In this document: piece by piece, positions 10,135 through 59,666 of the stretch
Layout: each line of letters opens with the position of its first letter
Numbering within the stretch: position 1 is the stretch's first letter
Assembly: GCA_965219535.1 (NCBI GenBank)
Contig: CBDCNV010000002.1
Location: 2,154,981-2,218,980, forward strand
Direction: 5' to 3'
DNA from: Opitutales bacterium
GTDB taxonomy: Bacteria > Verrucomicrobiota > Verrucomicrobiia > Opitutales > PNEW01
Length of the DNA stretch: 64,000 nucleotides
Translations under genes and position numbers: made by a program
Notes under the pieces: model-generated
What the model saw: only the letters and a program-made list of their open reading frames with translations
Told to the model about the DNA's origin: nothing
Databases searched by the model: none

Positions 10135-10158
10135 TTTGAGTTTATTTTCATAAAATAA

Positions 10159-10354
10159 AGCTTCGTCTTCGTCTGCCTCGATCTCTTCGTCCACCCAGTT
10201 GATTATAATATTAAGGTGGAACGCGGTGTCCCTACCGCGTTAGAGAGTTGTAATTGAAAAAGCGTGCTAGGGACAGCCCGCTCCACCTTAGATTACAAGA
10301 TTTTATCGCATTAATTTATAAAAATTAACTGTGTCAAAGACGCATACGAAGATT
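10159..10354 (+). repeat. composite MITE-like repeat, copy 1 (cttcgtcttcgtc ends plus central hairpin)
   Basis: The central arms aaggtggaacgcggtgtccctaccgcg (10213-10239) and cgtgctagggacagcccgctccacctt (10263-10289) are an imperfect inverted repeat. cttcgtcttcgtc lies at 10161 and a degenerate gacgcatacgaagatt at about 10339. Related copies lie at 13938 and 50144. Confidence 0.75.
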
Positions 10355-13908: not shown

Positions 13909-13937
13909 ATGCTGTTTAATAATGGGTATTAATAACT

Positions 13938-14102
13938 AATCTTCGTCTTCGTCTGCCTCTTCGTCTTGGTCCCCTGTAATCAATTACTGCAATATTAAGG
14001 TGGAACGCGGTGTCCCTACCGCGTTTAAGGTAGCAAATGAAGAAGCGTGCTAGGGACCAACCTTCGCCAAGGCTATGGCTGGCAGGCAGCCCGCTCCACC
14101 CT
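13938..14102 (+). repeat. composite MITE-like repeat, copy 2
   Basis: Has aatcttcgtcttcgtc and the same hairpin arms as copy 1. The right arm carries an extra segment caaccttcgccaaggctatggctggcag, which is also present in copy 3. Confidence 0.75.
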
Positions 14103-14154
14103 GGAGTCCCCGGCGAACCCCAGACGTTTGGCTTTAAGACTTCGATCAGCTTTT
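14103..14154 (+). repeat. 52-bp duplicate of the TonB-dependent receptor 3' end, including a stop codon
   Basis: Matches 13855-13906 with 2 mismatches. Both copies end in an in-frame stop (TGA, TAA). Confidence 0.9.
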
Positions 14155-14217
14155 AAAACAAAAGTAAAAGGAGCAGCAGCCAATAAGCTTATAAATGATG
14201 GAGCTTTGTCTTCGTTT

Positions 14218-14416
14218 GTCATTGCGAGGAGCAACGCGACGCGGCAATCCAGGCAAATATTCAATGTGTTTACGAAAGCAAGTCTTCGTTAAGATTCACG
14301 AAAAAATGTAAATGAAAATGATATAGCGCTAGCATATTTAATGAGAAATATAGGAGATCGGTTAATTCAATATTCCTGGATTGCCGCGGTCGGCTTATAA
14401 CCTTCCTCGCAATGAC
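14218..14416. repeat. inverted pair of gtcattgcgagg...gcaatccagg arms enclosing an AT-rich core
   Basis: Left arm 14218-14253 and right arm 14375-14416 (cctggattgcc...cctcgcaatgac) belong to the same arm family as the GIY-YIG element at 59215. Confidence 0.8.
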
Positions 14417-14432
14417 AAACTAGGACGATGTC

Positions 14433-15110
14433 CTATCTACCCAGCACCTTTTCGAGCCAGTAGGCGATGACGTTGATCTCTTCCTCACAGACGGCATGCG
14501 CCATTGGATACTCTATCCATTTAACTTTATAATGCATGTTAATCAACATATCTCTAGATGCTTTAGCCAGCGGGAGAGGAATGATGGGATCGTGCTGGCC
14601 GTGTATCATTAACACAGGTGTGTTCTTATTGTTGAGGTGGAGAGGCGGTATTGATGAATCCTTAGCATCCGCAATATGCGTGGATAGCGCAAGGATACCG
14701 GCCAATGACTGGTGATAACGCAATCCCGTATGCAAAGCAATAGCGCCACCCTGAGAAAATCCGGCGAGGATAAGATTCTGTGAGAGAATACCTAATTGAA
14801 TCTCCCGTTCTATAAGCTGTTCAATTTTTACACGTGTATTTTCAATGCCAGTCCAATCCGTTTTTTCAGGATTGGCCAATTCTACAATGTCGAACCACGC
14901 GGGCATCATCATGCCCCCGTTAACCGTAACCGGGAGGGCGGGTGCATGCGGTAAAACAAACCGCGTGGGAAGCGATGCGTTTTCTGCTAATTGAATGGCG
15001 ACAGATTCAAAGTCGTGACCATCCGCACCCAATCCATGCAGCCATAATACCGAGACCTCCGGGGTTTTTGAGGGATTTATCTCAACACAGGGTAATAGGT
15101 CGTCGCTCAA
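14433..15110 (-). CDS. carboxylesterase / phospholipase family alpha/beta hydrolase
   Basis: 225 aa with the nucleophile elbow GFSQGG and a conserved His near the C-terminus. Confidence 0.8.
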   Translation of the reverse strand: MSDDLLPCVEINPSKTPEVSVLWLHGLGADGHDFESVAIQLAENASLPTRFVLPHAPALPVTVNGGMMMPAWFDIVELANPEKTDWTGIENTRVKIEQLIEREIQLGILSQNLILAGFSQGGAIALHTGLRYHQSLAGILALSTHIADAKDSSIPPLHLNNKNTPVLMIHGQHDPIIPLPLAKASRDMLINMHYKVKWIEYPMAHAVCEEEINVIAYWLEKVLGR

Positions 15111-15382
15111 ATCTATCTTAAATGGTGAAGCCAGAAGGCTTATTATTTTATAATAGCGTCCTCAAAAAAATATTAACCCGAGGACACTGAGGCCACAGAG
15201 TATAAGAATAATAGTCAGCGCTTTTTTTTCCTGCTGAGTCAGCTGCCAGGGCATGTGTGAAATAATTAATAGTTTATCTTAATCCGCAAGGTTTTCTTTA
15301 GGGGATACAGGTTGCCAGATGCGAGATGCAGAAGGAATTGGGAGTGAACAGTAATCAATTATCAGCTATTTTCGCTTATCTT

Positions 15383-15752
15383 GTCATTGCGAAAGAGGCG
15401 CAGCCGACTGCGGCTACCGAGCGCAGCGACATCTTCCATTCCAGGAGGGCGACAAAACGCTTTCGACATTCCCCTGGATCGCCACGGCTGAACAGCAGCC
15501 TCGCAATGACAAGACGAGAATTATTCTATGCGTGTTTTTCTGCCGGGCCTGGCCAGCGGGTCTCGCAATGACAAAGTAATGAACAGGAAGCGTGTTTTAT
15601 ATATCCTCTAATTGATTACCCTTTATTGTCATTGCGAGGAGTGAAGCGACGAAGCAATCCAGGGGGTTGACAATACGCATCAGGCATCTCCCTGGAATGG
15701 AAGGTGTCGCTCCGCGGCTGCGGGATTCGGTAGCGTCATCACCAACTCGCAA
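15383..15752. repeat. cluster of at least five arms of the gtcattgcgagg / ctaccgag...cgacatcttcc family
   Basis: Arms at 15383-15445 (+), 15473-15510 (-), about 15553-15572 (-, partial), 15628-15663 (+) and 15691-15752 (-). Confidence 0.8.
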
Positions 15753-15760
15753 AATTATTC

Positions 15761-16999
15761 CTAAATAAAATTCATCGGTTTATATTTTTTACCGAGAATA
15801 TTGGCTGGATCGCAATCGAACCACTTATTTAAGAGCGTAGAATATACCTGCCGAAAATCAACGCTGTGTGTAAGATCGGTCTTCAAATCAACATCTAGAT
15901 TGGGTGATCGCCCGATCAGAGACTGTTTTAAAGAATTCCCCATAACAAATAAGGGAGCGGCTGTACCGTGATCAGTTCCTCTTCCATTATTTTCAGCGGG
16001 TCGCCGACCGAATTCGGAAAAGGTCATCGTGAGTACCTGATCCTGTAGAGAATGACTTTCCAGATCCGATTGGAATGCAGCCATCGCCTGGGATAATGCG
16101 GCTAATAATTGAGCGTGAGTATTAAGCTGATTAGTGTGTGTATCAAATCCACGATGCGAAACAAAGTATACACGTGTTTCCATTCCCGCGGCGATCATCG
16201 AGGCAACCTGCTGCAAGGATCTCGCGAGGGGGGTCCGGGGATAATCCACAGCAGGGCGATAGCGAGTGGTAATTTTTTTCACCTCTTTCTCCGTGACAAG
16301 GGCATCCATCATTGTGTGCTTTAAAAAACCGGCGGTATTATCACTTGAAGTGTGAGTAATTAACTCTTCCAGTAAATTCTGATTAGTGGGCTGGCGTCTA
16401 TTATTCCTCTGTAAACTGAGACCATATAAGTTGTGAGTCTGCTCCGAATGAAATGACTGGGGGAGTTGATTGCTTATATGAATTCCCGCTGGTTCATCAA
16501 TTGGCGGAGCGCCATCACATTTATTATCAAAGTATCGACCCAGCCAACCCGTCTGGAGGTATTCATCGCTATCACTACCCGTTTCCCAGATTTCCATGGA
16601 GCGAAAGTGGCTGCGATTGGGATTGGGGTAGCCCACATTCTGAATGATGGATAATTTACCCTCGCGATGAAGTTCTGCTAATTCACCACAGGATTTATGA
16701 AATCCCAGGGTATGAGTGATAGGAGTTACGGCATCTTTGCGAAGACCAAGTCGAGGGCGTAAACGGTAATAATTTGCGTCTTCAAAAGGGATGAGTGTGT
16801 TTAATCCGTCGTTACCACCCGCCAGTTGGATGAGAACTAAAATCGATCGATCCTTTTCAGGCGCCGGTAATTTTGCCAGTGTCGTCTGCGTGAGGAAAGC
16901 GGGCGCGAAGGAACTGAAAGCCACAAGCCCTATGCCCCCCAGTCCCGATTTTAGAAATTCACGGCGTGTGGTCGGAGTTTGTAAACTATCATTTTTCAT
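15761..16999 (-). CDS. DUF1501 family protein (sulfatase-like fold, Tat signal)
   Basis: Twin-arginine leader TRREFLKSGLGG, then LAGGNDGLNT and GFDTH motifs. Paired with a DUF1800 gene, as is usual. Confidence 0.85.
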   Translation of the reverse strand: MKNDSLQTPTTRREFLKSGLGGIGLVAFSSFAPAFLTQTTLAKLPAPEKDRSILVLIQLAGGNDGLNTLIPFEDANYYRLRPRLGLRKDAVTPITHTLGFHKSCGELAELHREGKLSIIQNVGYPNPNRSHFRSMEIWETGSDSDEYLQTGWLGRYFDNKCDGAPPIDEPAGIHISNQLPQSFHSEQTHNLYGLSLQRNNRRQPTNQNLLEELITHTSSDNTAGFLKHTMMDALVTEKEVKKITTRYRPAVDYPRTPLARSLQQVASMIAAGMETRVYFVSHRGFDTHTNQLNTHAQLLAALSQAMAAFQSDLESHSLQDQVLTMTFSEFGRRPAENNGRGTDHGTAAPLFVMGNSLKQSLIGRSPNLDVDLKTDLTHSVDFRQVYSTLLNKWFDCDPANILGKKYKPMNFI

Positions 17000-18692: not shown

Positions 18693-18944
18693 TTTTTATA
18701 AGTAATTTTATATTATAGCCTTATAAATATTTAGTTTTTCGTAGTTATGCCATACTGACAATAAACTGACAATAGACACGCCAATATCCAAGGATAACGT
18801 AGACTGAAATTTATTACTTTTCCCCTGATAATTTAGAGGGGCGGGGGGGTATTAAAATACACGTCTCCTCTCAATCGATTATCCATTAACCTGTATGCAG
18901 CGGAGGTGATTTTTCCGCGAGGGAACACAATACACCTTGAAGGA

Positions 18945-21155
18945 TTATTCAATCGTTACCTCATCAACCTCGACTGTAATGTCATTACCATCTTCGTTTG
19001 CGAAGGTAGCATTGATGCTCCTTGTGGGTTGAGGTGTGTTGTCCGATTTAAAATTGTTCTGCGTAATCAGTCGATCAAAGCCTCGTGTTGTCGATCCACT
19101 TTCCGCGACCACGATTGATGCTCCATTTGTCTGCGATAGGTCCCCACCGGTGATCCGCAATCCGGGGTTGCCGGCGGGCACAGTAAATGATCCCGTTCCG
19201 AATAAGAGGTGCGGAACCGCATCGCCACTCGCATCGATGTCACCTACCGTTAAGCGTACCGCGATGGGAACACCTCTAGCATCCACACCGACCTTGCCCG
19301 TGCTTCCCGAAAAAACAGTGTTCGACAGCTGTACCCCTCCCATTCCTGTGGAATTGACGACTTCCACGAGGGTCACGTCCGCTTGCGCGTCATAGACCTG
19401 TCCCTCGGGGAAGAGGGCCTGGTTAAACGCGTTGATCCTTCCCACAGTGAAGATACTGAAGAAAGTATTGGCGTCCGCTCCGTCGATGACCACGCTCGGT
19501 TTGCCCGTCACGTACTCAACCTGCTGGTTGTAGCGTGGGGGTATGGCCGGGGGGAGGAAGGTGGCTGGGTCCAGGGTTACGGTAAAGGTGCCATTACCTG
19601 AAAATTCTACCTGCACGATGTCCTCGTTTTCGTCCATGAAGGAAACGCGCGTGATCTGTCCCGGTTTGGCCTGGAGTTGAACGGACTCTCCGGTTAAGAG
19701 GATTTGATCAAATACATTTCCATTCGCGTGCTGAATGTTTTCACCGGCGATATCGCCCGAGCCGTCGAGGACGAGGGGCACGGCGGGAGCTGCCACGGTG
19801 ATGACCGCGGTGTCGCTGTCAGCGGTTCCGTCCGGGTTGCTTACCTGCACCCAGAAGTTTGTGCTCGCGGTGAGAGTACTGGTGGTAAAAGTACTGCCGG
19901 TGGCGCCTGCGATGGGACTCGCAGTGTCGCCGCTGTTGCCTTCATACCATTGGTAGCTCAAGTCATCGCCGCTGGCGGCGATGGTTAAGCTTGCTGAAGC
20001 GCCGGACTCGATCTCCTGGCTCTCGGGCTGGGTAGTGATGGAGGGCCCTTGCGCGGGAGGGGATATATCTTCAAAACCCGGAGCGCCGATCGGGGTAAAA
20101 CCAAAGTCGTCGATTACAGTAACGCTAAAATTTGGATTTACATTTACATCATCGGCTAAAGTAATTCTGGCAATACCGCCTACCGCACCCAATTCACTGG
20201 CTACGAATTTAACCTGAGGTGCAAGGGATCCGGGTCGAATGTCCGGCGGCAGATTTTCAATCGTTCTGAGCAAGTTATCTTCGGTATCAAATACCTGAAC
20301 GGTCCCGTCACTTTCGCCTGCCGCGGTTCTCGCTTCCACGGCGGCATAAAATTGAACCTTCGCTGCCGGTGTTTCGAAAGTGATCGTTCCGGTTCCACCA
20401 TTAAACATTTTCCAGTGCCATGCACCTGAGCGGTGCTGCGTGATACCGATATCTGACGTTGTTGCGACAAAGGCATTAGAAAAGGTGGCGGTAATAGGAG
20501 AGGTCCCAAGAGTAATGATATCCACTCCTACGGGTAAATCATCAAATGTGGTCCACACGGTATTATTCCTTGGCTCATCTGCTACGGTAAAACCAAGATC
20601 ATCGATGACTAATTTACCCGTGATATTAAAGAACTTAATTTCAGCGATACCGTCATAGTAGGTGGTTACGGTTTCCGGTATATATGCATAATCATCAGGA
20701 TAAGCGAGTATCCGCTGCAGAGGAGGATTGCTATCGGGGTTGATACTGGTCGGTAAGCCAGTTACTACATATTGCTCTAATAAGTATAAAAGATCACGTC
20801 CACTATCGTTTGTCGTAACACCTCGGGTCTCGATCTTACCCCCGCCCGTGGTCTCGGCGACATAGAATTGGATTTCAGCAATCCCCTGTGACCTGAAGAT
20901 TTTCCCCTCCTGACCGGGCTCCAGGGTTATCGCTTTGCTTCCCGAATGTAAAAGCGAAGGATCCTCTATAGTCTCCACCTTGAAGCCGATCAATTTCAAC
21001 CGGTTGGGCTCTTCGCCGATGAAAAATTCACCTTCCCCGCTAACGTTCTCAAAATCCGTGAAGCTCTCCAGATCTTGAGGAAGGGCCGACAGGCGCACCG
21101 GTAAATAGAGCAAGAGAAACAGAATTAGAATTATTTTTATGGGTTTTCGTTTCAT
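18945..21155 (-). CDS. secreted Ig-like domain protein with conserved C-terminal domain of unknown function (paralog A)
   Basis: Signal peptide MKRKPIKIILILFLLLYLPVRLSA from the ATG at 21155. Ig-like module ITTQPESQEIESGASASLTIAASGDDLSYQWYEGNSG. About 330 C-terminal residues are nearly identical to the gene at 36303. Confidence 0.8.
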   Translation of the reverse strand: MKRKPIKIILILFLLLYLPVRLSALPQDLESFTDFENVSGEGEFFIGEEPNRLKLIGFKVETIEDPSLLHSGSKAITLEPGQEGKIFRSQGIAEIQFYVAETTGGGKIETRGVTTNDSGRDLLYLLEQYVVTGLPTSINPDSNPPLQRILAYPDDYAYIPETVTTYYDGIAEIKFFNITGKLVIDDLGFTVADEPRNNTVWTTFDDLPVGVDIITLGTSPITATFSNAFVATTSDIGITQHRSGAWHWKMFNGGTGTITFETPAAKVQFYAAVEARTAAGESDGTVQVFDTEDNLLRTIENLPPDIRPGSLAPQVKFVASELGAVGGIARITLADDVNVNPNFSVTVIDDFGFTPIGAPGFEDISPPAQGPSITTQPESQEIESGASASLTIAASGDDLSYQWYEGNSGDTASPIAGATGSTFTTSTLTASTNFWVQVSNPDGTADSDTAVITVAAPAVPLVLDGSGDIAGENIQHANGNVFDQILLTGESVQLQAKPGQITRVSFMDENEDIVQVEFSGNGTFTVTLDPATFLPPAIPPRYNQQVEYVTGKPSVVIDGADANTFFSIFTVGRINAFNQALFPEGQVYDAQADVTLVEVVNSTGMGGVQLSNTVFSGSTGKVGVDARGVPIAVRLTVGDIDASGDAVPHLLFGTGSFTVPAGNPGLRITGGDLSQTNGASIVVAESGSTTRGFDRLITQNNFKSDNTPQPTRSINATFANEDGNDITVEVDEVTIE

Positions 21156-27324: not shown

Positions 27325-28287
27325 TCACCTCAGTGGATTTACTAGATTGCGTGGGGATAAACCTTTCGCTAAGCGATCAATATTCTCCGCGGCGGCTTTA
27401 GCGCGTCGATGCCACGTCCCCTGTGTGAATCCAGCGACATGCGGCGTAGTTAAAACGTTATCTAACTTTAAAAGGGGATGTTCCGGGGCCAAAGGTTCCT
27501 CGGCGTATGCGTCGATACCCGCACCTTTAATGCGACCGCTTGTCAGGGCCTCAATCAGTGCATCATTGTCAACGATTTCTCCTCGCGCAACATTGATCAG
27601 GACCGCCTTTTCCTTCATTACGCTGAAAGCGTGCTGGTCAATCAGGTGTCGCGTTTGCTTGGTTAAAGGAACGTGCACAGAAAGGAAATCAGACTCGACC
27701 AGAATTTTTTCAAGATCTTCGGGGTATCCAAGAAAGGCGAGATGAAATTCGTCGAGTTCATGCTGCGGAATATCTCTATTATCAATGGCTATGATCCGTA
27801 ATCCCAGGGCCCGGGCCCGTCTTGCCAATTCTTTCGCGCTTGCTCCGAAGCCGACCAATCCCAAAGTCTTTCCTTCGAGCTCATCGTTCATCACCCGATG
27901 CCAGTCTTTGGTGCGATTGTGATTGAGGTTTTTTGCGAAATAGAGAATCATAAGAAGCGCATGCTCTGCAAGAGGGACAGCGGTTAGGGGCCCCGGAGAG
28001 TGGGTGAGGAGCAGACCTTTACCCAAGATATATTCCGTGTCGACATGGTCGAGACCGTTGGTCGTAACCTGCCATAGTTTAACTTCAGCTGCTTTAGCCG
28101 CGTCCATCATCTCATGGGTTCCTATGGCCCCTCCCGTATCGATGACTACCTCAATCTCCTTAAACTGATCAGCAGCCGGTTTGTTTGGATCGTAAATTTC
28201 AATGGGATAACGACCGTCAATAAATTCAACCAGATAACGATAAGAAAAATGTAACCTGTCTGCGTTGCGAAGAAAAAGAACTTTCAT
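27325..28287 (-). CDS. D-isomer-specific 2-hydroxyacid dehydrogenase
   Basis: NAD-binding GLVGFGASAKELARRA, then VARGEIVD and the TPHVAG catalytic His motif. Confidence 0.85.
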   Translation of the reverse strand: MKVLFLRNADRLHFSYRYLVEFIDGRYPIEIYDPNKPAADQFKEIEVVIDTGGAIGTHEMMDAAKAAEVKLWQVTTNGLDHVDTEYILGKGLLLTHSPGPLTAVPLAEHALLMILYFAKNLNHNRTKDWHRVMNDELEGKTLGLVGFGASAKELARRARALGLRIIAIDNRDIPQHELDEFHLAFLGYPEDLEKILVESDFLSVHVPLTKQTRHLIDQHAFSVMKEKAVLINVARGEIVDNDALIEALTSGRIKGAGIDAYAEEPLAPEHPLLKLDNVLTTPHVAGFTQGTWHRRAKAAAENIDRLAKGLSPRNLVNPLR

Positions 28288-28469
28288 GGCTGATAAAGAG
28301 ACTTAATGATAAAATAGTTATGGAGAAGGTGCAAATTTTTCCTGGGCATTATTTATCTTCAATGAGAATAAAAACAGGATGAGGGAAAAGCTCATACATA
28401 AAACCGCCGCAGCGTCATAGCTGTCAGTGTATTTATGGGAGAGACTGAAGACGATTGTCCCAAGTGCAG

Positions 28470-28534
28470 CTAAAACCATTAACACCCGGTAACTCTCTCA
28501 CTTAATAATTGGTACGAAAAACGGGGTCCAATCA
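28470..28534 (-). mobile_element. solo terminal fragment of the IS3-family element found at 38004
   Basis: ctaaaaccattaacacccggtaactctctcacttaataattggtacgaaaaacggggtccaatca is the reverse complement of 38004-38066, differing by a 2-nt insertion and one substitution. Confidence 0.8.
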
Positions 28535-28855
28535 GTTGTTTATAGAATAGGTTTAAGACGATTGTACCCTAACTATAGCTAAGCATTCTCGAGTGCTGTG
28601 GAGTCGTGTGAGGGTTTTAATGAGCGATCAAACATCCTTTGGCACAGCTTTTATTATATCTGGATCCTCTGACTTAACTGACTTAAACATGCGCACGAAC
28701 AAAAGGGTCAAAAGGTCAAAACATTGGATGATGCAGGAGGGTTAGATTGTAATCAGCCGCCTACGCTTCACTATGGCGTTCCAAGGTGGACAGTGATCAG
28801 TTGCCGTCGTCCTACAGTGGTGAATTTAAATCTGATCACATTTGCCTCTCCTCTT

Positions 28856-29040
28856 GTCATTACGAGGCGTGCGGGAATTCATTTGAATATCCTTCTTAAA
28901 TCCTCAGAATCCTTCTCGTGAACCCCTATTGGAAAGACTTGAGTGGAGATTGGTATGAGTAGGCACAATGAATATTCGTCTGGAATGGAAGATGTCTCCC
29001 GCGACCGCGGGATCGGTAGCTTCGCCTCGCTCGCAATGAC
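28856..29040 (+). repeat. gene-less derivative of the GIY-YIG element (degenerate left arm, last ~20 codons of the nuclease gene, long right arm)
   Basis: 28900-28962 reads ILRILLVNPYWKDLSGDWYE-stop, against IALIEAENPHWKDLSGDWYS-stop in the intact gene. The right arm is 28979-29040. Confidence 0.8.
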
Positions 29041-29051
29041 AATTTAAAAAA

Positions 29052-30290
29052 ATGCATTATGTATTAAATTACTTTCGACTCCTTATATTCATCGTGGGTA
29101 TTCTATTAGGATTAGGTATGGGCAGGAATGACGAGTCTAAGTCAGAGAATAATAGAGTAAATCCTTCTAATGCAGAGGACGATCTTACACCGGTCCACGC
29201 AAAAGTTCCCGGTGTCGTTATTAATTATTCTCCCGCGTCTACGAGAGAATTCATTGGTTCTCCCAGCATCGCAGTTCTTCCCAACGGCCATTATGTAGCA
29301 TCGCACGACTTCTTTTACCCACGCGAAAGGATGACCCGAACGAAGCGCCCGACAATCGTTATCTACGGGTCGGAAGACAGAGGTGAAACCTGGAAACAAC
29401 TATCCAGATTCAAAGGGCAGTTCTGGTCGACCTTATTTGTTTATGAAGAAGCGCTCTATCTTTTTGGCGCCAGTAGGGAATATGGTTACGTGGTAATCCA
29501 AAAATCTGAGAACGGAGGGAAAACTTGGACGAAGCCTAAAGATGGAAAGAGCGGTCTTATCAAAGACGATGCTAAACACCAAAGCACACCGTTCCCCCCT
29601 GTGATCCACGACGGAAGAATCTGGAAGGCATTTGAGCAGGTGGGGGATTTAAAGATGTCCCGTAAAGATATATTTGATAATAAAGGGGATTGGAGATCGT
29701 TCGTCATGTCCGCGCCCGTCGATGCGAACTTGCTCAACGCTGAGAATTGGCGTGTAAGCGAACTACTCCATCATGAGCAGCCAAATTTCATGTGGCTTGA
29801 AGGAAACATCGTAGTAACGCCTGAAGGCAGGTTAATAAACATCTTACGCATGAATGATCTTAAATGGGCCAGCTACGATAAGGCGGCGGTCGTGCACGTT
29901 TCGGATGACGGCATGGAGCTCTCGTTCGATCCCGAGACGGACATTATTAACTTCCCGGGTGGCGGAGCAAAATTCACACTTCATTATGATGAGAAAAGCA
30001 ATCGCTACTGGTCCATCGGCAATAAACAAACAAACCCCAAGGCGCGACGCAACGTCCTCGTGCTCACCTCTTCGTCCGATTTGAAGAACTGGAAAATAGA
30101 GAAGACTCTCCTGCAACATCACGATGAAGAAAAACACGCCTGGCAGTACGTAGACTGGTTGTTTGATGATGATGATATCATCGCAGTTTCAAGAACAGCT
30201 TATGACGATGGTCTCGGTGGCGCCTACAACCATCATGACGCAAACTATCTTACTTTTCATCGCATAAAAAACTTCCGTGAGAATGAATAA
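29052..30290 (+). CDS. BNR/Asp-box beta-propeller protein (sialidase-like), secreted
   Basis: 412 aa with a signal/anchor segment and Asp boxes SEDRGETW and SENGGKTW. Confidence 0.8.
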   Translation: MHYVLNYFRLLIFIVGILLGLGMGRNDESKSENNRVNPSNAEDDLTPVHAKVPGVVINYSPASTREFIGSPSIAVLPNGHYVASHDFFYPRERMTRTKRPTIVIYGSEDRGETWKQLSRFKGQFWSTLFVYEEALYLFGASREYGYVVIQKSENGGKTWTKPKDGKSGLIKDDAKHQSTPFPPVIHDGRIWKAFEQVGDLKMSRKDIFDNKGDWRSFVMSAPVDANLLNAENWRVSELLHHEQPNFMWLEGNIVVTPEGRLINILRMNDLKWASYDKAAVVHVSDDGMELSFDPETDIINFPGGGAKFTLHYDEKSNRYWSIGNKQTNPKARRNVLVLTSSSDLKNWKIEKTLLQHHDEEKHAWQYVDWLFDDDDIIAVSRTAYDDGLGGAYNHHDANYLTFHRIKNFRENE

Positions 30291-30570
30291 GATTCATCAC
30301 GAAACTGAAAATAGATCACTAATCAATAGGATTTGCCCTATAGAAGAATTAAAACATGACAGACTGCAGAGCAAATCGCTGAAGCCGAACGAAGAGCCGA
30401 GGATTGGCTGAGTAAGCACCAGTGATCGGACCCCGTTATTCGAACCAGTTTAAGTGAGAGAAGTACCAAGTGTTAACGGATTATTGACCTGTCCCCATAA
30501 AACTGGACCAGCAAAGATTTAGTCTGGCATGGGTGGAAAACCTAATAAAAAATAGGAGAAAGAACCACCC

Positions 30571-30871
30571 ATGAAAAGCAAAGGTTCACGAGGCATAGCC
30601 GAGAAGGCCTGACAAACGATATAATAAAGAACAAATCATCTATGCCCTAAGGCAGGTAGAAGGCGGACGAAGGATTGCCGAAGTGTGCCGAGAGTTAGGC
30701 GTGAGCGAACAGACCTACCACCGATGGAAGGGTAAATACGCGGGCATGGGAATGAGCGAATTAAGACGGCTGAAGCAACTCGATGAAGAGAACGCCAGTT
30801 TGAAGAAGCTGGTAGCTGATCTGAGCCTGGACAAGCACATGCTGCAGGAAGTAATCGCAAAAAAATTATAA
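30571..30871 (+). pseudogene. IS3-family transposase OrfA (HTH), interrupted after codon 2 by a 37-nt segment
   Basis: A Shine-Dalgarno sequence (aggag) and the ATG at 30571 lead to a TGA at 30610. The conserved frame KRYNKEQIIYALRQVEGG... starts at 30614 with no start codon of its own. Confidence 0.7.
30859..30865 (+). promoter_or_regulatory. A7 programmed -1 frameshift site between OrfA and OrfB
   Basis: In gcAAAAAAAtta the -1 frame continues as KKIIKPVRKKVIADWL into OrfB. Confidence 0.75.
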
Positions 30872-30876
30872 AGCCT

Positions 30877-31743
30877 GTGCGCAAGAAGGTGATTGCTGAC
30901 TGGTTAGTGGAAGCTTATGAGGTGAGCAAACGCCGCGCGTGCAGGCTGATGAAGTTGTATTGGTCGAGTTATAACTACCAGCCGGTGAAGAAGGACGAAC
31001 GTGCGCTGATCATGCGCATCCGTGACCTCGCCGCAGCGCGCGTGCGCTACGGGTATCGGCGAATCACGGTGTTATTAAAGCGGGAAGGCTGGACGGTAGG
31101 AAAGAAACGCGTTTATCGTATCTACAAGGCCGAAGGGCTGGAAGTGCGCACGAAGAAACGAAAGAAGCGTGCCGCGCAAAGACGGGTCTCACTGCCCGCG
31201 GCTTCAGCAGCCCAGGAGCGCTGGTCGATGGACTTTATGAGCGATCGGCTGACCAACGGCCGCCCCTTCCGCATACTCACCGTTGTCGATCAATACACCC
31301 GAGCTTGCCCACTGCTTTTGGTCGATACGTCCATCGGTGGGCACAAAGTCGCTGCAGCACTTATGAAAGCCGCTGCAGGAATCGGTCTTCCCCAAACCAT
31401 TACCGTCGATAATGGGCCCGAGTTTTCCGGCAAAGTACTGGATGAATGGGCTTATGGCCATGACATCAAGCTGGATTTTATCCGGCCAGGTAAACCCGTA
31501 GAGAATGGTTATATTGAGAGTTTCAATGGACGCTTACGAGATGAACTTCTTAACACCGAGCTATTTTGTACGCTCGCTGAAGCGAAAGAAAAACTTGAAG
31601 CCTGGCGGCTTGATTATAATACTCAAAGACCACACAGTTCTCTGGGCTATCGGCCTCCGGCCGAATACGCCCAGAGAGCCATGTCTAAGAAAATTAAAAC
31701 CCATACCACCCTGCCGGAACTAACACTTGCTCTGGTACAGTAA
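30877..31743 (+). CDS. IS3-family transposase OrfB (DDE/rve integrase core)
   Basis: WSMDF...DNGPEF...NGYIESFNGRLRDE catalytic-core motifs. Confidence 0.9.
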   Translation: MRKKVIADWLVEAYEVSKRRACRLMKLYWSSYNYQPVKKDERALIMRIRDLAAARVRYGYRRITVLLKREGWTVGKKRVYRIYKAEGLEVRTKKRKKRAAQRRVSLPAASAAQERWSMDFMSDRLTNGRPFRILTVVDQYTRACPLLLVDTSIGGHKVAAALMKAAAGIGLPQTITVDNGPEFSGKVLDEWAYGHDIKLDFIRPGKPVENGYIESFNGRLRDELLNTELFCTLAEAKEKLEAWRLDYNTQRPHSSLGYRPPAEYAQRAMSKKIKTHTTLPELTLALVQ

Positions 31744-31811
31744 ACGGGAGCAGGTCATTATCCCGATAACCTTTCACTGTAAATGATACGATTTTTGGGG
31801 TCACTCCACAG

Positions 31812-34709: not shown

Positions 34710-36066
34710 CAGGACATGGTTTACAGATTTAGATCAAGACATGGTTTACACTTTGTGAGGGATGCTGAACGGTAATCGGGTTATATAGTTAAGTTAATGT
34801 TATGCGGTTTTAGAGGTTTGGCTGGCATTGTTGGGGCCGCAAGCGGCCCCAATGAAAGCAGCCGTTGAAAGGTCAATCTGACCGATTCTGAGAGTGGCAA
34901 AGTAAACATCGAAGTGTACCGTGTCTAGTGGTTTTAGTCCAACGCTCCAACCGGCGAGGGCGGTGGAGATAGGAATCTGGAAGCCATCGAGTTTGATAGA
35001 CCCGCTTTTTGAGACCCGGCGAGTCATCAAATCATAGCTGATATCGGCAGGAGTGCCACCGTAAGGATGAGAGCTGTGCTGATAGATTTCAGAGGGCGTG
35101 CTCATGGCAAGAGCCGCATGGGGGCGTTCTTCATTGAAGGTCTTGCGCCACAGATCGAAGGCCACCTGTTGGGTGCGAAGATCGTCCTGGGCATGTTTTT
35201 GCAACTCCTCTTTGATATCGCGATGGAGACGCTCATGGGCACCGTTATCCTGGGGTTTACCCGGACGTCCACGCTCGAGATTGATCCCTAAGGCCAGCCA
35301 CCAGGCCGCCAGTTTGCTCAGGCCCAGGACCGCATTGGCACTGGCAAAGGGACTGCCGTTGTCGCTGCGGATGCAAGCGGGAAGTCCATAGCGTTCAAAG
35401 AGTTTTGTGAAGCATTCACGCACCGCTTCGCTACGGGCTGAACTGAGCACCCGCACCTCTAATACATAGCGGCTCCATTCATCCCGTACCGTCAAAGGTT
35501 CACAACGGTTGCCATCAACGGTGTGCCACCACCCTTTGAAGTCTACGCTCCACACTTCGTTACAGCCACTGGCCTTGACGCTGCGGTAAAGGCGTCCGCT
35601 TTTTTGAGCGCTTCTGCGCCGACGCTTTTGCACCAGTCCCGCACGTTCCAAGACCCGTTTCACGCTCGAGTCTGAGGGGGCCTTCCCGTAACGCCTCTGG
35701 TAAAGCTCGCGGATCTTGTAGGGGCCCCACGTCGGGTGATGATGCTTGAGTTTGATCAGCGTACATACTACTGATTCGGATAGTTCCTGAACACTTCCAT
35801 GCGGTCGGCGTGAGCGCTCGTGCAACCCCTCCATCCCTTCGCTCAGGAAGCGCTTCTTCCATTTATACCCTGTCGGTCGGCTGATCCCGTAGTCTTCACA
35901 CAGCTCGTTCATCTTTACTCCCGGTTGCATCGATTCCAGGGCGAATTGGTATCTTTGGTCCATTTTATTTGTTTCCTTCCATGACATCATACCCCTTACT
36001 TAGCATCCTTCTTTCTTTGGCAATCTGTAAAGGATGTCCTGAACCTTTTGTGTAAAGAATGTCTTG
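34710..36066 (-). mobile_element. IS481-family insertion sequence; exact ends ambiguous
   Basis: Single DDE transposase gene. 17-bp repeats caRgacatNNtttacaS occur twice at each end (34710, 34735, 36025, 36050). Confidence 0.75.
34800..35990 (-). CDS. IS481-family DDE transposase
   Basis: N-terminal HTH (ISRPTGYKWKKRF), rve core WSVDFKG...SDNGSPF...QDNGAHERLHRDIK. Confidence 0.85.
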   Translation of the reverse strand: MMSWKETNKMDQRYQFALESMQPGVKMNELCEDYGISRPTGYKWKKRFLSEGMEGLHERSRRPHGSVQELSESVVCTLIKLKHHHPTWGPYKIRELYQRRYGKAPSDSSVKRVLERAGLVQKRRRRSAQKSGRLYRSVKASGCNEVWSVDFKGWWHTVDGNRCEPLTVRDEWSRYVLEVRVLSSARSEAVRECFTKLFERYGLPACIRSDNGSPFASANAVLGLSKLAAWWLALGINLERGRPGKPQDNGAHERLHRDIKEELQKHAQDDLRTQQVAFDLWRKTFNEERPHAALAMSTPSEIYQHSSHPYGGTPADISYDLMTRRVSKSGSIKLDGFQIPISTALAGWSVGLKPLDTVHFDVYFATLRIGQIDLSTAAFIGAACGPNNASQTSKTA

Positions 36067-36210
36067 AACCTATACCTCAGGGTCAAACGTAGAATTTAAA
36101 TATACTCTGTAACGGGTCTCAGTAGTCGATTGATTCATGATGCATGCTGCAGTATTCAGGATGTCATGGGGTAGGGGGTCGGATTGCAGAATGTACGAAA
36201 CCGACATTCC

Positions 36211-36271
36211 CCTGGAGTGGAAGATGTCGCTGCGCTCGGTAGCCACGGCTGACAAGCAGCCTAGCGATGAC
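36211..36271 (-). repeat. solo long arm of the gtcattgcgagg family
   Basis: cctggagtggaagatgtcgctgcgctcggtagccacggctgacaagcagcctagcgatgac. Confidence 0.75.
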
Positions 36272-36302
36272 AAGGTATTTCAATCGAAAAACGGCAATCG
36301 TA

Positions 36303-38003
36303 TCATTCTATTGTCACTTCTTCAGTTGTCACCGCGATATCATCCCCATCCTCGTTGGAGAAGGTAGCGTCAATGCTCAGGGTCGGTTGAGGCGTTTCGT
36401 CAGACTTGAAATTGTTCTGTGTGATCAGAGTCTCAAATCCCGGTGTTGTCGATCCACTCTCCGCCACGACGATCGAAGCGCCATTCGTCTGCAACAGGTC
36501 TCCACCCGTGATGCGCAAACCGGGGTTGCCCGCCGGTACCGTGAAGGACCCGTTTCCGAACAGCAGGTGCGGCACCGCATCGCCGTCGGCGTCGATGTCG
36601 CCCACCGTTAATCGTACCGCGATCGGTACGCCACGCGCATCGAAGCCGACCTTGCCGGTGCTTCCACTGAACACGGCATTCGATAACTGTACCCCTCCCA
36701 GGCCCGTGGAGTTGACTACTTCCACGAGGGCCACATCGGCCTGGGCGTCATAGACCTGTCCTTCGGGGAACAGCGCCTGGTTAAAGGCGTTGATCCTGCC
36801 CACCGTGAAAATGCTGAAGAAGGTATTGGCGTCAGCTCCATCGATGACCACACTCGGCTTGCCCGTCACATACTCAACGGCCTGGTTGTAGCGTGGAGGG
36901 ACAGCCGGGGGCAGGAAGGTGGCCGGGTCCAGGGTTACGGTAAAGGTACCGTTACCTGAGAACTCTACCTGCACAATGTCCTCGTTTTCGTCCATGAAGG
37001 AAACACGGGTGATCTGTCCCGGTTTGGCCTGGAGTTGGACGGACTCTCCGGTGAGTAGTATCTGGTCGAAGACGTTGCCGTTGGCATGCTGAATGTCTTC
37101 ACCCGCGATATCGCCCGAGCCGTCGAGGACGAGGGGCACTGAAGGTGCTGCTACCGTGACGACGGCCGTATCGCTGTTGGCGCTCCCTCCGGCGTTCGTT
37201 ACCTGCACCCAGAAATTCGTGCTCGCGGTGAGTGCACCCGTGGTCAAGGTATTCGACGTAGCTCCGGCGATGGGATGATTAGCAGAGTCGCCGCTATTGC
37301 CTTCATACCACTGGTAAGTGAGATCGTCGCCGCTGGCTTCAACTGACAAAACGACAGCGGTCCCCGACTGCACTTCCTGGTTCGTGGGTTGGGTAGTGAT
37401 AGAGGGAGCATCCGCGGGTGGCGGTGCTGAGGTATCAGTGCCCGGTGCGCCAATAGGAGTAAAACCGAAATCATCGAAGACTGTTGCGCTTCTCGCTATA
37501 TTTACATTGGGATTGTCCTTAACAATCAGTCTGCCAATGCCGCCTGGAGCTCCCAACTCTACCGTATTGATTGTAGTTTGACGGGGTTTGAATAAAGCAT
37601 CAAGAGCCCCAGCACTTTCCAAGTCCGAAAAGGTAGCAAGAAGGTTATCATTAGTATCGTAAACTTCGATTGTTCCGTCGGGGTCAGTAGTGCCAGTCAA
37701 AACAATGGCTGCGGCGAAAACATCGATCTCAAATGCCGGGGTTTCAAAAGTGACCGTGAAGCTTTCTCCGTTAGCAATCCCATAGGATTGAAGTCCCGAT
37801 CGCGTTGGATTATTTGCGGCAGATAAAATCGAGCCCCCAACAAAAGTAGCTCTAATAGGTGATTCCCCAACAATAATGGGTGCCGTTATACCTGCACCCA
37901 CACTAAAATCCTCAAAAGTAGTGAATACGGTGTTATTGGACGGTCTTTTCGTTATGGTGAAACCCAGATCGTCAAGGGAGAATTTTCCTGAAACATTTTT
38001 GAT
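36303..38003 (-). pseudogene. Ig-like secreted protein paralog B, C-terminal part (separated from its 5' end by an IS)
   Basis: The frame is open up to the IS boundary at 38003 (IKNVSGKFSLDDLGFTI...). It is collinear with paralog A from about residue 187 onward. Confidence 0.8.
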
Positions 38004-38030
38004 TGATCGGACCCCGTTTTTCGTACCAAT

Positions 38031-38954
38031 TTAAGTGAGAGAGTTACCGGGTGTTAATGGTTTTAGGATTGATGTATATGAGAGATCTTGGCGAAGTGAG
38101 GGCGTAGCCCGAACGCGGCCAAGATCGGAAAGGAATCTGACAAACTCTTGTGGGCTTTTGAAGCCTAAACGACTGTGGGGATGTTCATGGTTATAGGTCT
38201 GACGCCATTGTTCGATTACCACTTGCGCTTCAGCCACGCTGAGTAACACTTCACGGTTCAAACACTCATCGCGTAAGCGGTTGTGAAACGACTCGATGAA
38301 ACCGTTTTGCCAGGGACTGCCCGGATCGATATAGATCGCCTTTATGTTATTACCGGACAACCACTGCTGCACTTGATGAGCAATGAACTCACTGCCGTTG
38401 TCACTACGGATATAGCTGGGAGGTCCCTCCTCTTCAATGGCCTCGCTAAGCACAGAGAGGACATCGGTTGAGGTGAGTTGACGAGCGACCCGGATATCCA
38501 GGCATTTACGCGTATATTCATCGATTAGAGTCATCATCTTTAATGGACCGCCGTTGTCTGTACGATCATGGACAAAGTCCCAGGACCAAACGTGATTGCG
38601 ACCCTTTGCTTTAGTAGGTGACCCCGTAGAGACTCCTTGACGGTGTCTGCCCTTTTTCGGGGGCTTTACCTGCAGCCCTTCTGAACGTCGTACCGCCTGG
38701 ACAAACTTCCTGCTTGTTGTCCAGCCTTCCTTTACCAGCAAGGCACGGATGCGCCGGTAACCGTAGCGGGGATGTTTCCAGGACAAGCTCACAATCCGCT
38801 CGACCAACCGCTGAGCTTTCTCACTGGCCTGTTTGGGCCGGTAACTGAACGTTGACCAACTCAGGCTGAGATAAGCACAAGCCCTCCGCAACGAGCACAA
38901 CCCTTTCTCAGCCGCAGCTTTTACTACTCGTTTCTTCTGCTTTGGGCTCACCAT
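38031..38954 (-). CDS. IS3-family transposase OrfB (DDE/rve core)
   Basis: WSWDF...SDNGSEF...NGFIESFHNRLRDE. The stop lies inside the terminal repeat. Confidence 0.9.
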   Translation of the reverse strand: MVSPKQKKRVVKAAAEKGLCSLRRACAYLSLSWSTFSYRPKQASEKAQRLVERIVSLSWKHPRYGYRRIRALLVKEGWTTSRKFVQAVRRSEGLQVKPPKKGRHRQGVSTGSPTKAKGRNHVWSWDFVHDRTDNGGPLKMMTLIDEYTRKCLDIRVARQLTSTDVLSVLSEAIEEEGPPSYIRSDNGSEFIAHQVQQWLSGNNIKAIYIDPGSPWQNGFIESFHNRLRDECLNREVLLSVAEAQVVIEQWRQTYNHEHPHSRLGFKSPQEFVRFLSDLGRVRATPSLRQDLSYTSILKPLTPGNSLT

Positions 38955-39241
38955 TTTTTTGACAGCGTTTCCTCCATTACCTGATTCTTGAGCATTTGAT
39001 CTGCGAGCAGCTTCTTCAGCTCGGTATGTCAGGCCTTCTCGCTTGCGCTCGTGAATTCTTTTTCCAGCTCTTTAAATCGCTTCGCATCGGCAAGTTCTAA
39101 ATTGCCATATTTTTTACGCCAGCGATAGAAAGTCTGTTCGCTCAGGTTGTTTCCACGGCAGATTTCCTGTACCGTTTTACCGGTATCGGCTTGCCGCAAT
39201 ATTGTTATAATCTGTTCTGTTGTGTATCTTTTTCTTTTCAT
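38948..39241 (-). pseudogene. IS3-family transposase OrfA with an in-frame TGA inside an extra 27-nt segment
   Basis: MKRKRYTTEQIITILRQ...RFKELEKE[FTSASEKA-TGA]HTELKKLLADQMLKNQVMEETLSKKW. The A7 slippery site is at 38954-38960. Confidence 0.7.
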
Positions 39242-39306
39242 TGAGGTTATCTGTTTATCCCGATAACCTCTCTCTGTAAATGATACGATTTTTGGGGGTC
39301 ACTCCA

Positions 39307-39541: not shown

Positions 39542-39606
39542 ATAAGATTCCTCAATGAATAAATTAAAGAGAAATCCGTTAGGGTCAAACGGGATTGAAC
39601 TTTCTT

Positions 39607-39853
39607 GTCATTGCGAGGAGCAACACGACGAAGCTACCGAGCGCAGCGACATCTTACACTCCAGGTGAATGTCTGTTGTATGAAGTAGGTCCCTTGGTGT
39701 TAGGATTAATTCTCAACCGATCGTATACTTAATTTTGAGACGAACCCTCATTGGATAGATTTGAGCGGAAATTGGTTTTCGTAGGCATAATGACTATTTG
39801 CCTGGAATGGAAGATGTCGCTGTGCTCGGTAGCCGCGCTTCGCTCGCAATGAC
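39607..39853 (+). repeat. gene-less derivative of the GIY-YIG element (two long arms plus last 13 codons)
   Basis: Arms at 39607-39665 and 39801-39853. 39743-39784 reads NPHWIDLSGNWFS-stop. Confidence 0.8.
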
Positions 39854-40010
39854 AAAAGGAATATTACGAAAATTAGTATTATTTATGATATCCGCTAGGA
39901 AAAATCGCTTCCTCCCACGAGTGATAAGGACCCACTCTCGGAAGCGTCTTTTCCACGAAACATATCACGGGATAACATACAAGGGCGAAGCCCGACATCT
40001 TCCAAATCAG

Positions 40011-41114
40011 CTACCGAGGCGAAGCTCGACATCCCTCATTGTCTATCTCCTGCAACTTGAACCGGACACTCACCACAGACTGCTTTTCCGGTCCCGGTCT
40101 GTACTTGATATAGGTCGTGGCTACCAAGGTGTCGTCGGGCAAGAGCTCCAACCCCGGGTATCCACAGTCGTGCGCCTTTTCTTCATCGTAACTGTGCAGT
40201 AGTTTGATGCGATACTGACCCTCCCGACAGTTGCGCAGGTCTTGATACGTACCCACCCAGGCTACAAAATGTCCCCAGGTCGGGCTATTGGCAGTCCTGT
40301 CTCGAAAGCAAATGACGAGACGACCGTCCGAGGCGTAGCGCGGTTGGTGGCGGTCGCCCGTGATCGTGCGGTTGAGCTCCACGGGGGGAGTCCACGATTC
40401 TCCTTCATCATCGCTGAACATAGCGAGCGAGCGGCATTTCATGCTGCCGTTAACCCGCAACACACAGGTAATTTCACTCCCCTCGGGTGAGCGTACGAAC
40501 GCAGGTTCGCACGGCTTTGAATCAGGAAATTCCCCGCCGCTCGTGAGAAGCAATCGCTCTGGTCCCCAGGTCAGCCCTCCATTCTCTGAGATGCTCAGAA
40601 AAGTTGAGCCATCTCGATTCCAGGCACCCAACAATCGGTCTTGAGAAATCTCTATAACCGTCGTGAAGGGCATGGTTGTTTTCAGCCCATTTTCTTCGAA
40701 TGGTGTCCATGTCTGACCCGCATCTACCGACATGGCTTGACGCATTTTACCCTCGCCCTCAAAAATGAAGAGCCGTTCAACATTGTCCGGTCCAACAAAA
40801 CGGTAGAGGGCAGGGCAATTGTTCGCAGTAATCCAGTTCTCCGGGACGGGCAGTGGATCTGTCCATATCATTCCGCCATCGTCACTGCGACAGAGCACAG
40901 CAGACGGTCTCCCGTGTCCTAATGGGTACACACAATAGATTGTCTTTCCATCTGGCATCAAAAGGGTAGTTGGATGTCCCTTGTAACTTTCACTCGTGCC
41001 CTGCGCTACTATTACGTGACGCCTCGTTTCATGGGAGATATCGATCATAGGAATATTGAAGGGTATAGTTTCCGTCATTTGAATCTCCTCTCTCTTAAAC
41101 AACTTCGGTTCCAA
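40011..41114 (-). CDS. BNR/Asp-box beta-propeller protein (sialidase-like), no signal peptide seen
   Basis: Asp boxes SDDGGMIW, SVDAGQTW, SENGGLTW, SDDEGESW. The last 8 codons (EGCRASPR) and the stop lie in a repeat core. Confidence 0.8.
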   Translation of the reverse strand: MEPKLFKREEIQMTETIPFNIPMIDISHETRRHVIVAQGTSESYKGHPTTLLMPDGKTIYCVYPLGHGRPSAVLCRSDDGGMIWTDPLPVPENWITANNCPALYRFVGPDNVERLFIFEGEGKMRQAMSVDAGQTWTPFEENGLKTTMPFTTVIEISQDRLLGAWNRDGSTFLSISENGGLTWGPERLLLTSGGEFPDSKPCEPAFVRSPEGSEITCVLRVNGSMKCRSLAMFSDDEGESWTPPVELNRTITGDRHQPRYASDGRLVICFRDRTANSPTWGHFVAWVGTYQDLRNCREGQYRIKLLHSYDEEKAHDCGYPGLELLPDDTLVATTYIKYRPGPEKQSVVSVRFKLQEIDNEGCRASPR

Positions 41115-49498: not shown

Positions 49499-49762
49499 TT
49501 ATCCTTATTATTTATATTTTCAGGTTTATAGCTGAATTACTTATTCAATTCCAGGGCCGTTGCCTCTACGGTGGTCGAATTCAAGGGTATTACTGATAGA
49601 TAGGAAATTAAAAGCGTGAATTTATATTTTCTAATACTAAATGCAAGCAAGTTGCCAAAAAATTCATGAAGAGGAGTTACCTATAAGTAAAAACGAAAAC
49701 TTCGATCAGAATAACTTTAACTACACAACAGCTATAAAGGTATAAATCTCTTCGTCTGAATT

Positions 49763-50031
49763 GTCATTGCGAGGGAGGCTATCAGCTGACCGCGGCTACC
49801 GAGTCCCGCAACTACGGGACGACATCTTCCATTCTAGGCGAATAGTCATTGTGCTTACTCTTACCAGTCACATGGTAAATCTTTCCAATGAAGGTTCGAC
49901 TTTTAATCAAAACATTACTCATCTGAGGATTAACCTTAACATCTGCGGGTCTACATAACGAAACAGACATCCCCCCGAGTGGAAGATGTCGCTGCGCTCG
50001 GTAGCTTCGTCGCTTTACTCCTCGCAATGAC
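49763..50031 (-). repeat. gene-less derivative of the GIY-YIG element (two long arms plus last ~11 codons, reverse orientation)
   Basis: Arms at 49763-49838 and 49975-50031. 49861-49896 (minus strand) reads NLHWKDLPCDW-stop. Confidence 0.8.
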
Positions 50032-50082
50032 AATTGTGACGATGACTATGATAACCGTGATCCACCCTTTTTATATTTTCTC

Positions 50083-50143: not shown

Positions 50144-50357
50144 GAGACGAAGACGAAGAGTGATTCGATTTATCTCTAATTTAAATCTTTTAATGCAAGG
50201 TGGAGCGGGCTGTCCCTAGCACGCTTCTTCTATTACGACTAAATCAAACGCGCTAGGGATCAGCCGTCGCCAAGGCTATGTCGGACAGACACCGCGTTCC
50301 ACCCTGATATTGTATTAATTAACTGACGAAGACACAGACGTGGACGAAGACGAAGAT
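50144..50357 (-). repeat. composite MITE-like repeat, copy 3 (both gacgaagacgaag termini present)
   Basis: agagacgaagacgaagag at the left, gacgaagacgaagatt at the right, central arms at 50198-50225 and 50250-50304. Confidence 0.75.
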
Positions 50358-50378
50358 TATTATTATCCATCCCTTATA

Positions 50379-59189: not shown

Positions 59190-59214
59190 AGTGTAATTGC
59201 ATCGCGCCCCTATT

Positions 59215-59639: not shown

Positions 59640-59666
59640 AAATGGGGAGGCACGTGCCCTCCATTA

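Follow-up and report, generated by a model that had tools for sequence, protein, structure and literature searches.

A probable gene-less derivative of an Ssn-type nuclease cassette at the 5′ flank of a BNR gene

What is the 189-bp repeat that lies just 5′ of a BNR gene (positions 28854–29042) in the 64 kb stretch of DNA analysed here (the window), and how did it come to be there? An earlier note had described it as a gene-less derivative of a GIY-YIG element. This description is borne out by alignment: the candidate is collinear with an intact cassette at 59213–59641 in the order arm, gene tail, spacer and arm, the similarity is significant and the body of the nuclease gene is indeed missing. 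We consider it likely that the candidate derives from an SRM-ssn-SRM cassette and is a decayed copy without autonomy; in such a cassette a single-domain GIY-YIG gene of about 95 amino acids (aa) is flanked by hairpins with their heads facing outward. The note had recognised the GIY-YIG element but missed its identity with the published Ssn/SRM system.

The candidate opens on the plus strand with a degenerate short left hairpin arm, or left SRM unit (TTGTCATTACGAGGCGTGCGGGAATTCAT, 28854–28882), which consists of a TTGTC head, an ATTAC half-stem, GAGG, a loop, a GGAAT half-stem and a TCAT tail. A degenerate arm had been described here at 28856–28883, and only its coordinates needed correction. 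The TTGTC head and GAGG are conserved, one stem pair is mutated in both partners (ATTAC/GGAAT versus ATTGC/GCAAT) and the arm gave no fold as single-stranded DNA (ssDNA); in its mutated form it is probably dead. The segment that follows (28883–28919, plus strand) is a probable, if only suggestive, remnant of the ssn leader and first codons, in which TTAAATCCTCAGAATCC resembles TTTACATCCTCACCAGTAAGC of the GIY-motif region. The stretch 28900–28962 translates as ILRILLVNPYWKDLSGDWYE-stop and had been read as the nuclease 3′ end over its whole length. Translation and stop are correct, but significant similarity begins only at 28920 (GAACCC), so that homology to ssn is confined to the last 13 codons plus the stop (NPYWKDLSGDWYE and stop, 28920–28962, plus strand); the similarity of the ILRILLV / IALIEAE part to the intact gene was not significant. 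Next comes a 16-nt post-stop spacer (28963–28978, plus strand), found where it had been reported and conserved by alignment in all family copies as well as in the related metagenomic genome L002 and the Opitutales locus L004. The long right hairpin arm, an SRM unit on the minus strand, starts at 28979 as described but ends at 29042 rather than 29040; it reads TTGTC-ATTGC-GAGCGAGGCGAA-GC, a 34-nt block and ATTCCAGA, matches six other long arms and points its head towards the BNR gene. Between this arm and the ATG of that gene at 29052 lie 9 nt, where 11 nt had been given before.

Might so short an intergenic stretch resemble the end of a nuclease gene by chance? The short length of the match is all that speaks for this reading, and we regard it as refuted, with a probability close to nil. 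Within the window, blastn aligned 28920–28987 to 59546–59612 with 79% identity over 68 nt and an E value of about 1e-10 (7.6e-11 to 1.7e-10); the local score of the gene tail was 64, against a maximum of 27 among 2,000 shuffles, and tail, spacer and arm recur in this order in four copies. A formal alignment had been named beforehand as the test that could overturn the gene-less derivative, and with the similarity to the nuclease 3′ end found significant the reading stands. A search of the whole 64 kb window with Rfam at gathering thresholds returned tRNA only, and a permissive scan of 28600–29150 returned nothing. Two small open reading frames (ORFs) overlap the candidate (28724–28921, plus strand, 65 aa; 28926–29057, minus strand, 43 aa); they had no family match where tested and are most likely artefacts of the repeat.

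The intact cassette, whose ssn gene lies 30 kb from the candidate, is on the plus strand and comprises a left arm (59213–59249, 37 nt), a 45-nt leader, the ssn ORF (59295–59588), a spacer and a right arm (59605–59641, 37 nt). Its 97-aa product matches a sole Pfam family, PF01541, over residues 5–77 (E = 5.5e-11). The catalytic residues Y8, Y19, R29 and E66 are invariant in an alignment of 24 sequences, with the numbering of Neisseria SsnA mapped by position only; Y6, Y17 and E64 are essential in SsnA of N. meningitidis (PMC11893778). The protein is 57–59% identical (E about 1e-32) to proteins at three loci (L046, L048 and L066), where matches to the published SRM motif lie on either side of the gene. 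It has >8,000 relatives, including proteins with 60–70% identity in candidate phyla radiation bacteria, Omnitrophota and Alphaproteobacteria, and a scan with one genome per species yielded 80 loci from Verrucomicrobiota, Chloroflexota, Cyanobacteria, Patescibacteria, Proteobacteria, Bacteroidota, Nitrospirota and others, among which the nearest named match was an Opitutales metagenome-assembled genome (MAG) at 81%. The solved structures related to it were distant UPF0213 proteins only. Judged on its sequence (size, single domain, catalytic residues and layout of the flanking hairpins), the parent is most probably an SRM-ssn-SRM cassette.

In L002, the same cassette lies between the same aminotransferase and PhyH genes, at 84% amino-acid identity. 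The dN/dS of ssn is 0.14–0.18, indicating purifying selection, and the L002 and window cassettes have identical arm heads and stems, whereas sequence immediately beyond the arms is unalignable. The low dN/dS and the identical heads and stems therefore indicate that gene and arms are constrained and vertically stable, as RAYT genes are.

The Ssn system was described by Chenal et al. (Nat Commun 2025), who reported SsnA as a 94-aa single-domain GIY-YIG protein encoded between repeats (NTS; generalised as SRM) (PMC11893778). SsnA binds NTS solely as ssDNA and on one strand only, cuts a few nucleotides 5′ of the head and limits transformation by DNA that carries the repeat; the NTS-ssnA-NTS layout was likened to an insertion sequence (IS), with mobility left as a hypothesis, and the text of the paper makes no mention of remnants, pseudogenes or MITEs (PMC11893778). 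Di Nocera et al. (BMC Genomics 2013) had earlier defined the CGTC-tagged REPs, among them dRS3 of Neisseria and RPE-4/6 of Rickettsia, by a head of CGTC or TGTC, a stem that opens with AT and a tail of CCA; most lie in inverted pairs, and no enzyme dedicated to them was found (PMC3733652). The SRMs of 2025 and the CGTC-tagged REPs of 2013 are the same repeats.

Window and published systems agree in much. As in Ssn/SRM, there is a single-domain GIY-YIG protein of about 94–97 aa with oriented hairpins on both sides that have an (H)GTC head, an AT stem and a C-Y-R-G tail, and the repeats are multi-copy, intergenic and very widely distributed. As in CGTC-tagged REPs, the CGTC/TGTC head lies outside the stem, the stem starts with AT, the tail is CCA(G), inverted pairs predominate and the units are intergenic, often just past gene ends. 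CGTC-tagged REPs differ in having stems of 8–9 bp and loops of 4–5 nt; they had been assigned no enzyme, whereas the window units flank a GIY-YIG gene. The window arms also differ from published SRMs: they miss the published motif, their outer stem has 5 bp (ATTGC/GCAAT), the GAGG / GA(C)GAA internal loop is conserved, the inner insert varies, and an extra block of 32–34 nt is present in many of them.

Are such arms hairpins of the same kind at all? Across the 80 loci, head-out units headed by GTC were found upstream of the gene in 54, downstream in 67 and on both sides in 50. Their 5-nt stems covary: ATTGC is paired with GCAATC in 183/197 cases and ATTCT with AGAATC in 36/37, and the rarer stems behave alike (ATGCT with AGCATC, 8/9; ACCCT with AGGGTC, 6/8; ATCCT with AGGATC, 9/12). 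Cross-combinations are mostly 0, the largest being ATTGC with the complement of ATCGC (14/197) and ATCGC with the complement of ATTGC (5/18). The Fisher p values (1e-32 to 1e-41) overstate independence because copies from the same genome are related, although the exclusivity is still clear. This compensatory change in the stem supports a hairpin in the arms; the ssDNA folding energies of the arms were no better than those of shuffles. A hammerhead-like reading of CTGAGGAG...GAA in some arm variants was ruled out by inspection because the positions covary as a stem and are not fixed as a catalytic core.

The published SRM pattern, HGTCWYN(0-2)YYVSBRHN(0-5)WNVSBRGN(0-2)RNCYNB, had 0 matches on either strand of the 64 kb window and matched in only five of the 80 loci. 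Since it is an operational search tool derived from 29 genomes and fails here, the arms are most suitably placed in an SRM class of their own. This class reads GTC-ATTGC-GAGG-(variable insert)-GA(C)GAA-GCAAT-CCAG and is the commonest among close homologues of the cassette protein. Searching the literature with the raw repeat sequence returned unrelated primers only, and a search for work linking GIY-YIG proteins (COG2827, YhbQ) to MITEs or terminal inverted repeats (TIRs) returned nothing relevant.

Arms occur in a short form and a long form, the latter with a block of 32–34 nt (GCTACCGAG...GACATCTTCC) at a fixed point in the 3′ half-stem. In the window the block is found at 15413–15435, 28985–29018, 36221–36243, 39633–39655, 39811–39833, 49795–49828 and 49983–50005, and in L002 at 1413–1446. 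It is polymorphic in two independent orthologous comparisons, one between the window and a 99%-identical copy in L084, which has 2 nt in place of the candidate's 34-nt block (28985–29018, plus strand), and the other between the intact cassette and L002. In some copies a TGTC-TCCCGCGACCGCGGGA-TCGG hairpin similar to the core of the Neisseria NTS lies within the block on the opposite strand; in the candidate this mini hairpin is on the plus strand at 28993–29016. The strict block pattern is confined to this lineage, being absent from the 76 loci of other phyla that were checked, and a one-base variant is present in L004. The long right arm has GCTAC and not GCAAT as its 3′ half-stem, which breaks the canonical hairpin, so that long arms may not be substrates of the nuclease and their activity is uncertain.

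How does the candidate relate to the other copies? The family in the window amounts to nine copies or fragments bounded by TTGTCATTGCGAGG ... CCTCGCAATGACAA, with about 15 arm units in nine places. Besides the candidate and the intact cassette, it includes two sister gene-less copies of the same deletion architecture, at 39605–39857 (plus strand, both arms long) and 49761–50034 (minus strand, 274 nt), and a gene-less copy at 14216–14419 (minus strand; blastn and alignment) that keeps the 5′ leader and 3′ tail with different breakpoints. There are also a solo long arm at 36199–36274 (minus strand) and an arm cluster at 15381–15740 that lacks the gene tail and consists of a pair (15381–15513), a solo end (15562–15575) and a second pair (15625–15740). 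This cluster packs three to four arm units into 360 bp, has a convergent gene on each side and is like the mosaic REP clusters (BIMEs) of enterobacteria. The copies are intergenic, with no overlap with an ORF of ≥120 aa except that between a 134-aa ORF (39798–40202) and the copy at 39605–39857. Several lie 14–29 nt beyond the 3′ ends of genes, and the candidate alone abuts a start codon. Similarity between copies ends at the TTGTC heads, beyond which the flanks are unrelated, and the ends of the seven copies read showed no direct repeats that would indicate a target-site duplication.

The window has repeats of other kinds as well. A second, unrelated family, MITE- or REP-like in appearance, forms inverted pairs whose core, AAGGTGGAGCGGGCTGTCCCTAGCACGC, stands between GACGAAGAC-type runs; its copies lie at about 10150–10310, 13937–14160 and 50146–50383, at about 1880–1960 in L002 and in an intergenic position in L095. 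Direct repeats of about 1.1 kb with 75–82% identity (18944–20060 and 36302–37421) are probably paralogous genes for surface proteins with Ig-like domains.

Aligning the copies to the intact element, as the earlier note had advised for mapping the breakpoints, brought out the deletion architecture that the sister copies have in common. In both, the distance from the left end to GAACC is 137 nt and the internal segments are homologous to each other (p about 0.001). When aligned to three reference cassettes, these segments run collinear with the beginning of the ssn ORF (YVYIL region), with shuffle p values of about 0.02–0.08 for the copy at 49761 and 0.3–0.6 (not significant) for that at 39605, so their homology to the ORF start is only suggestive. 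The candidate shares with both copies the GAACC boundary and AATCCTCAGA, the latter common to it and the copy at 49761 with p about 0.016, and differs from them by extra deletions that leave a shorter left side and a segment before GAACC that is 16 nt shorter. On sequence grounds, then, at least three gene-less copies at unrelated loci of the window have one deletion architecture. Remnants of the ssn 3′ end were also observed near a full-length ssn at two of the other loci, in a Coxiellaceae MAG (L049, about 1000–1140, minus strand), where a hairpin arm follows directly, and in a Calditrichota MAG (L014, about 230–300); gene-tail remnants are thus not peculiar to this genome.

Two histories could have left such a copy in front of the BNR gene. 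Under the first, a full cassette once located 5′ of that gene lost its gene body on the spot and never moved in gene-less form. The extra deletions of the candidate, unseen in its sisters, would fit this course, as would the copy at 14216, which shows that independent breakpoints do occur; however, one ancestral deletion explains the GAACC boundary and AATCCTCAGA common to the copies at 39605 and 49761 better than three deletions, and a copy of the same architecture appears to have been gained at a new locus. We therefore judge decay in place unlikely. The simplest reading is that a single internal deletion kept both ends of the gene, that the gene-less unit then spread and that local decay followed; the candidate would probably have been gene-less on arrival, much like a MITE or REPIN, with further losses on its left side coming later.

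The gain at a new locus concerns the copy at 49761, which lies between a conserved gene of 428 aa and nqrA. Four relatives, with NqrA 94, 89, 87 and 83% identical, keep the synteny of the 428-aa gene and nqrA, and the 274-nt element is missing from all four. Flanks could be aligned on both sides in the 94% and 83% relatives (L092 and L096) and on the nqrA side only in the 89% relative (L093), while for the 87% relative (L095) the comparison covered arm motifs alone. A single gain is likelier than independent precise deletions in several lineages, which points to an insertion, whose junction is blurred at the nucleotide level by variable GACGAAGAC repeats. Any transposition was not recent, because the sister copies are only about 70–80% identical. 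Neighbours of other copies gave same-strain hits only in exact-protein look-ups, and a metagenome scan with the hydrolase at 14433–15110 found no close relative (52% identity at most).

The pieces of ssn carried by the gene-less copies show that at least some of the dispersed repeats are descended from the cassette. The shared deletion, the ends at hairpin heads and the absence from four relatives together point to spread without the gene.

What does the candidate do beside the BNR gene? That gene (29052–30290, plus strand) encodes a 412-aa BNR/sialidase-like protein (BNR_2) with an N-terminal hydrophobic segment. Given a divergently oriented neighbour upstream and a gap of 9 nt, transcription of the BNR gene must start inside the candidate or pass through it, a statement of geometry and not evidence of regulation. 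The element might nevertheless have been exapted, its tail and right arm serving as a promoter or a structured 5′ leader that controls the BNR gene. The same geometry speaks for this, as does the preservation of 28891–30350, a segment that takes in the gene tail, the spacer, the right arm, the BNR gene and 60 nt past it. This segment is 99.2% identical to positions 2373–3799 of L084, a genome with an NqrA of only 83% identity, and there too tail and arm stand next to the BNR gene. But 99% identity reflects too little time for conservation to indicate selection, and a net difference of 32 nt in the arm is tolerated between the window and L084 copies. Moreover, no sigma-70-like promoter or terminator was found on the plus strand of 28250–29150, the predicted fold of the BNR leader RNA was no better than shuffles (z = −0.33), and all other copies in the window are at some distance from gene starts, several of them just past gene 3′ ends. 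Exaptation therefore seems improbable to us, and the element is most likely a passenger that forms the immediate 5′ flank of the BNR gene.

Gene tail, right arm and BNR gene travel together, since all three recur at 99.2% identity in the more distant L084 genome; set against the 83% of NqrA, that identity implies that this module, which in L084 is in a different neighbourhood, moved horizontally or by IS activity. On sequence comparison, this suggests a recent horizontal or IS-mediated transfer of the BNR module. The only other context found for the BNR gene is L084/L085 (protein 98% identical), where an IS4-like element with 29-nt terminal repeats abuts the equivalent of position 28891, and for that reason the left arm of the candidate cannot be compared there. 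A solo inverted IS3-type end (28470–28536) and an rve-type IS starting at 30423 lie on either side of the module in the window; IS elements nearby are rve-type (IS3-like; 30423–31800 and 38004–39297), together with an IS481-like transposase (34800–35990). A second BNR_2 gene (40011–41114, minus strand) is 23% identical to the first and has the repeat pair at 39605–39857 153 nt past its stop. Two of the four gene-tail copies, those at 28854 and 39605, thus adjoin BNR genes, which may be coincidence. A 412-aa ORF at 15761–16999, considered as a paralogue of the BNR gene, is not one.

A further role would be compatible with a decayed gene-less copy: by analogy with Neisseria, Ssn may cut incoming ssDNA at the arm and so alter how often the BNR surface-enzyme module is replaced by recombination or gene transfer. 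Control of this kind has been shown experimentally for SsnA of N. meningitidis and NTS repeats, which are clustered beside surface-protein genes (PMC11893778), and the BNR module is clearly mobile horizontally. The BNR gene, however, is flanked by a single arm, in contrast to the arm-gene-arm layout tested in Neisseria, and we regard such a role as quite improbable.

How might a decayed gene-less copy of this kind have been moved? By analogy with the characterised systems, the nuclease would recognise the hairpin repeats that flank its gene. Binding of the candidate's right arm by the resident Ssn would require a single-stranded minus strand, for example during replication or DNA uptake, and, going by the Neisseria and Wolbachia enzymes, the cut would then fall about 3 nt 5′ of the TTGTC head, within 29043–29051 and before the ATG of the BNR gene. 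In a complete pair with heads outward, two cuts, one per strand, would bracket the element, at the points where similarity between copies ends.

Similar behaviour is known from other element classes. As in the REPIN-RAYT system (Nunvar 2010; Bertels and Rainey 2011), one resident, vertically inherited gene of nuclease type lies between its own hairpin repeats, and inverted pairs are dispersed in intergenic DNA without target-site duplication; the enzyme in the window, however, is a GIY-YIG protein and not an HUH/Y1 (IS200-like) transposase, and the dispersed pairs carry pieces of the enzyme gene. With IS-derived MITEs the window copies have in common terminal inverted repeats, a size of <300 bp, one internal deletion in several copies, probable remnants of both gene ends and, for the copy at 49761, presence/absence polymorphism, but they lack a target-site duplication and a recognised transposase, and the parent gene encodes a 97-aa nuclease. 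IS200/IS605 elements likewise have hairpin ends recognised as ssDNA, strand-specific cleavage beside the hairpin and no target-site duplication, with an enzyme of another fold and chemistry; Ssn is not known to carry out strand transfer. Because the enzyme is of the GIY-YIG type and there is no target-site duplication, the family is a member of neither REPIN-RAYT nor IS/MITE, although it works like either.

It is possible, and we put this forward tentatively as something slightly less probable than its contrary, that SRM-ssn-SRM cassettes are genuinely transposable, encode no protein other than a 97-aa GIY-YIG ssDNA nuclease and shed gene-less, MITE-like derivatives mobilised in trans.

The candidate itself is probably an ordinary decayed repeat of a known system that matters little to the cell. 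Its value lies in the evidence it adds that Ssn cassettes yield mobile MITE-like derivatives, and the analysis goes beyond published work in three respects: a missed hairpin class, a shared deletion architecture and a sister copy absent in four relatives. Because the published motif misses a large hairpin class, censuses of SRMs and CGTC-tagged REPs have probably fallen short of the full number. Annotation is affected as well: copies like the candidate give rise to spurious small ORFs and sit within the 5′ regions of real genes. If the cassettes are indeed transposable, the first sequence-level evidence would consist of internal-deletion derivatives that keep both gene ends, copies that end exactly at the heads and a filled and empty site; this would supply the enzyme that was missing for CGTC-tagged REPs in 2013 and make the IS-like hypothesis of 2025 directly testable.
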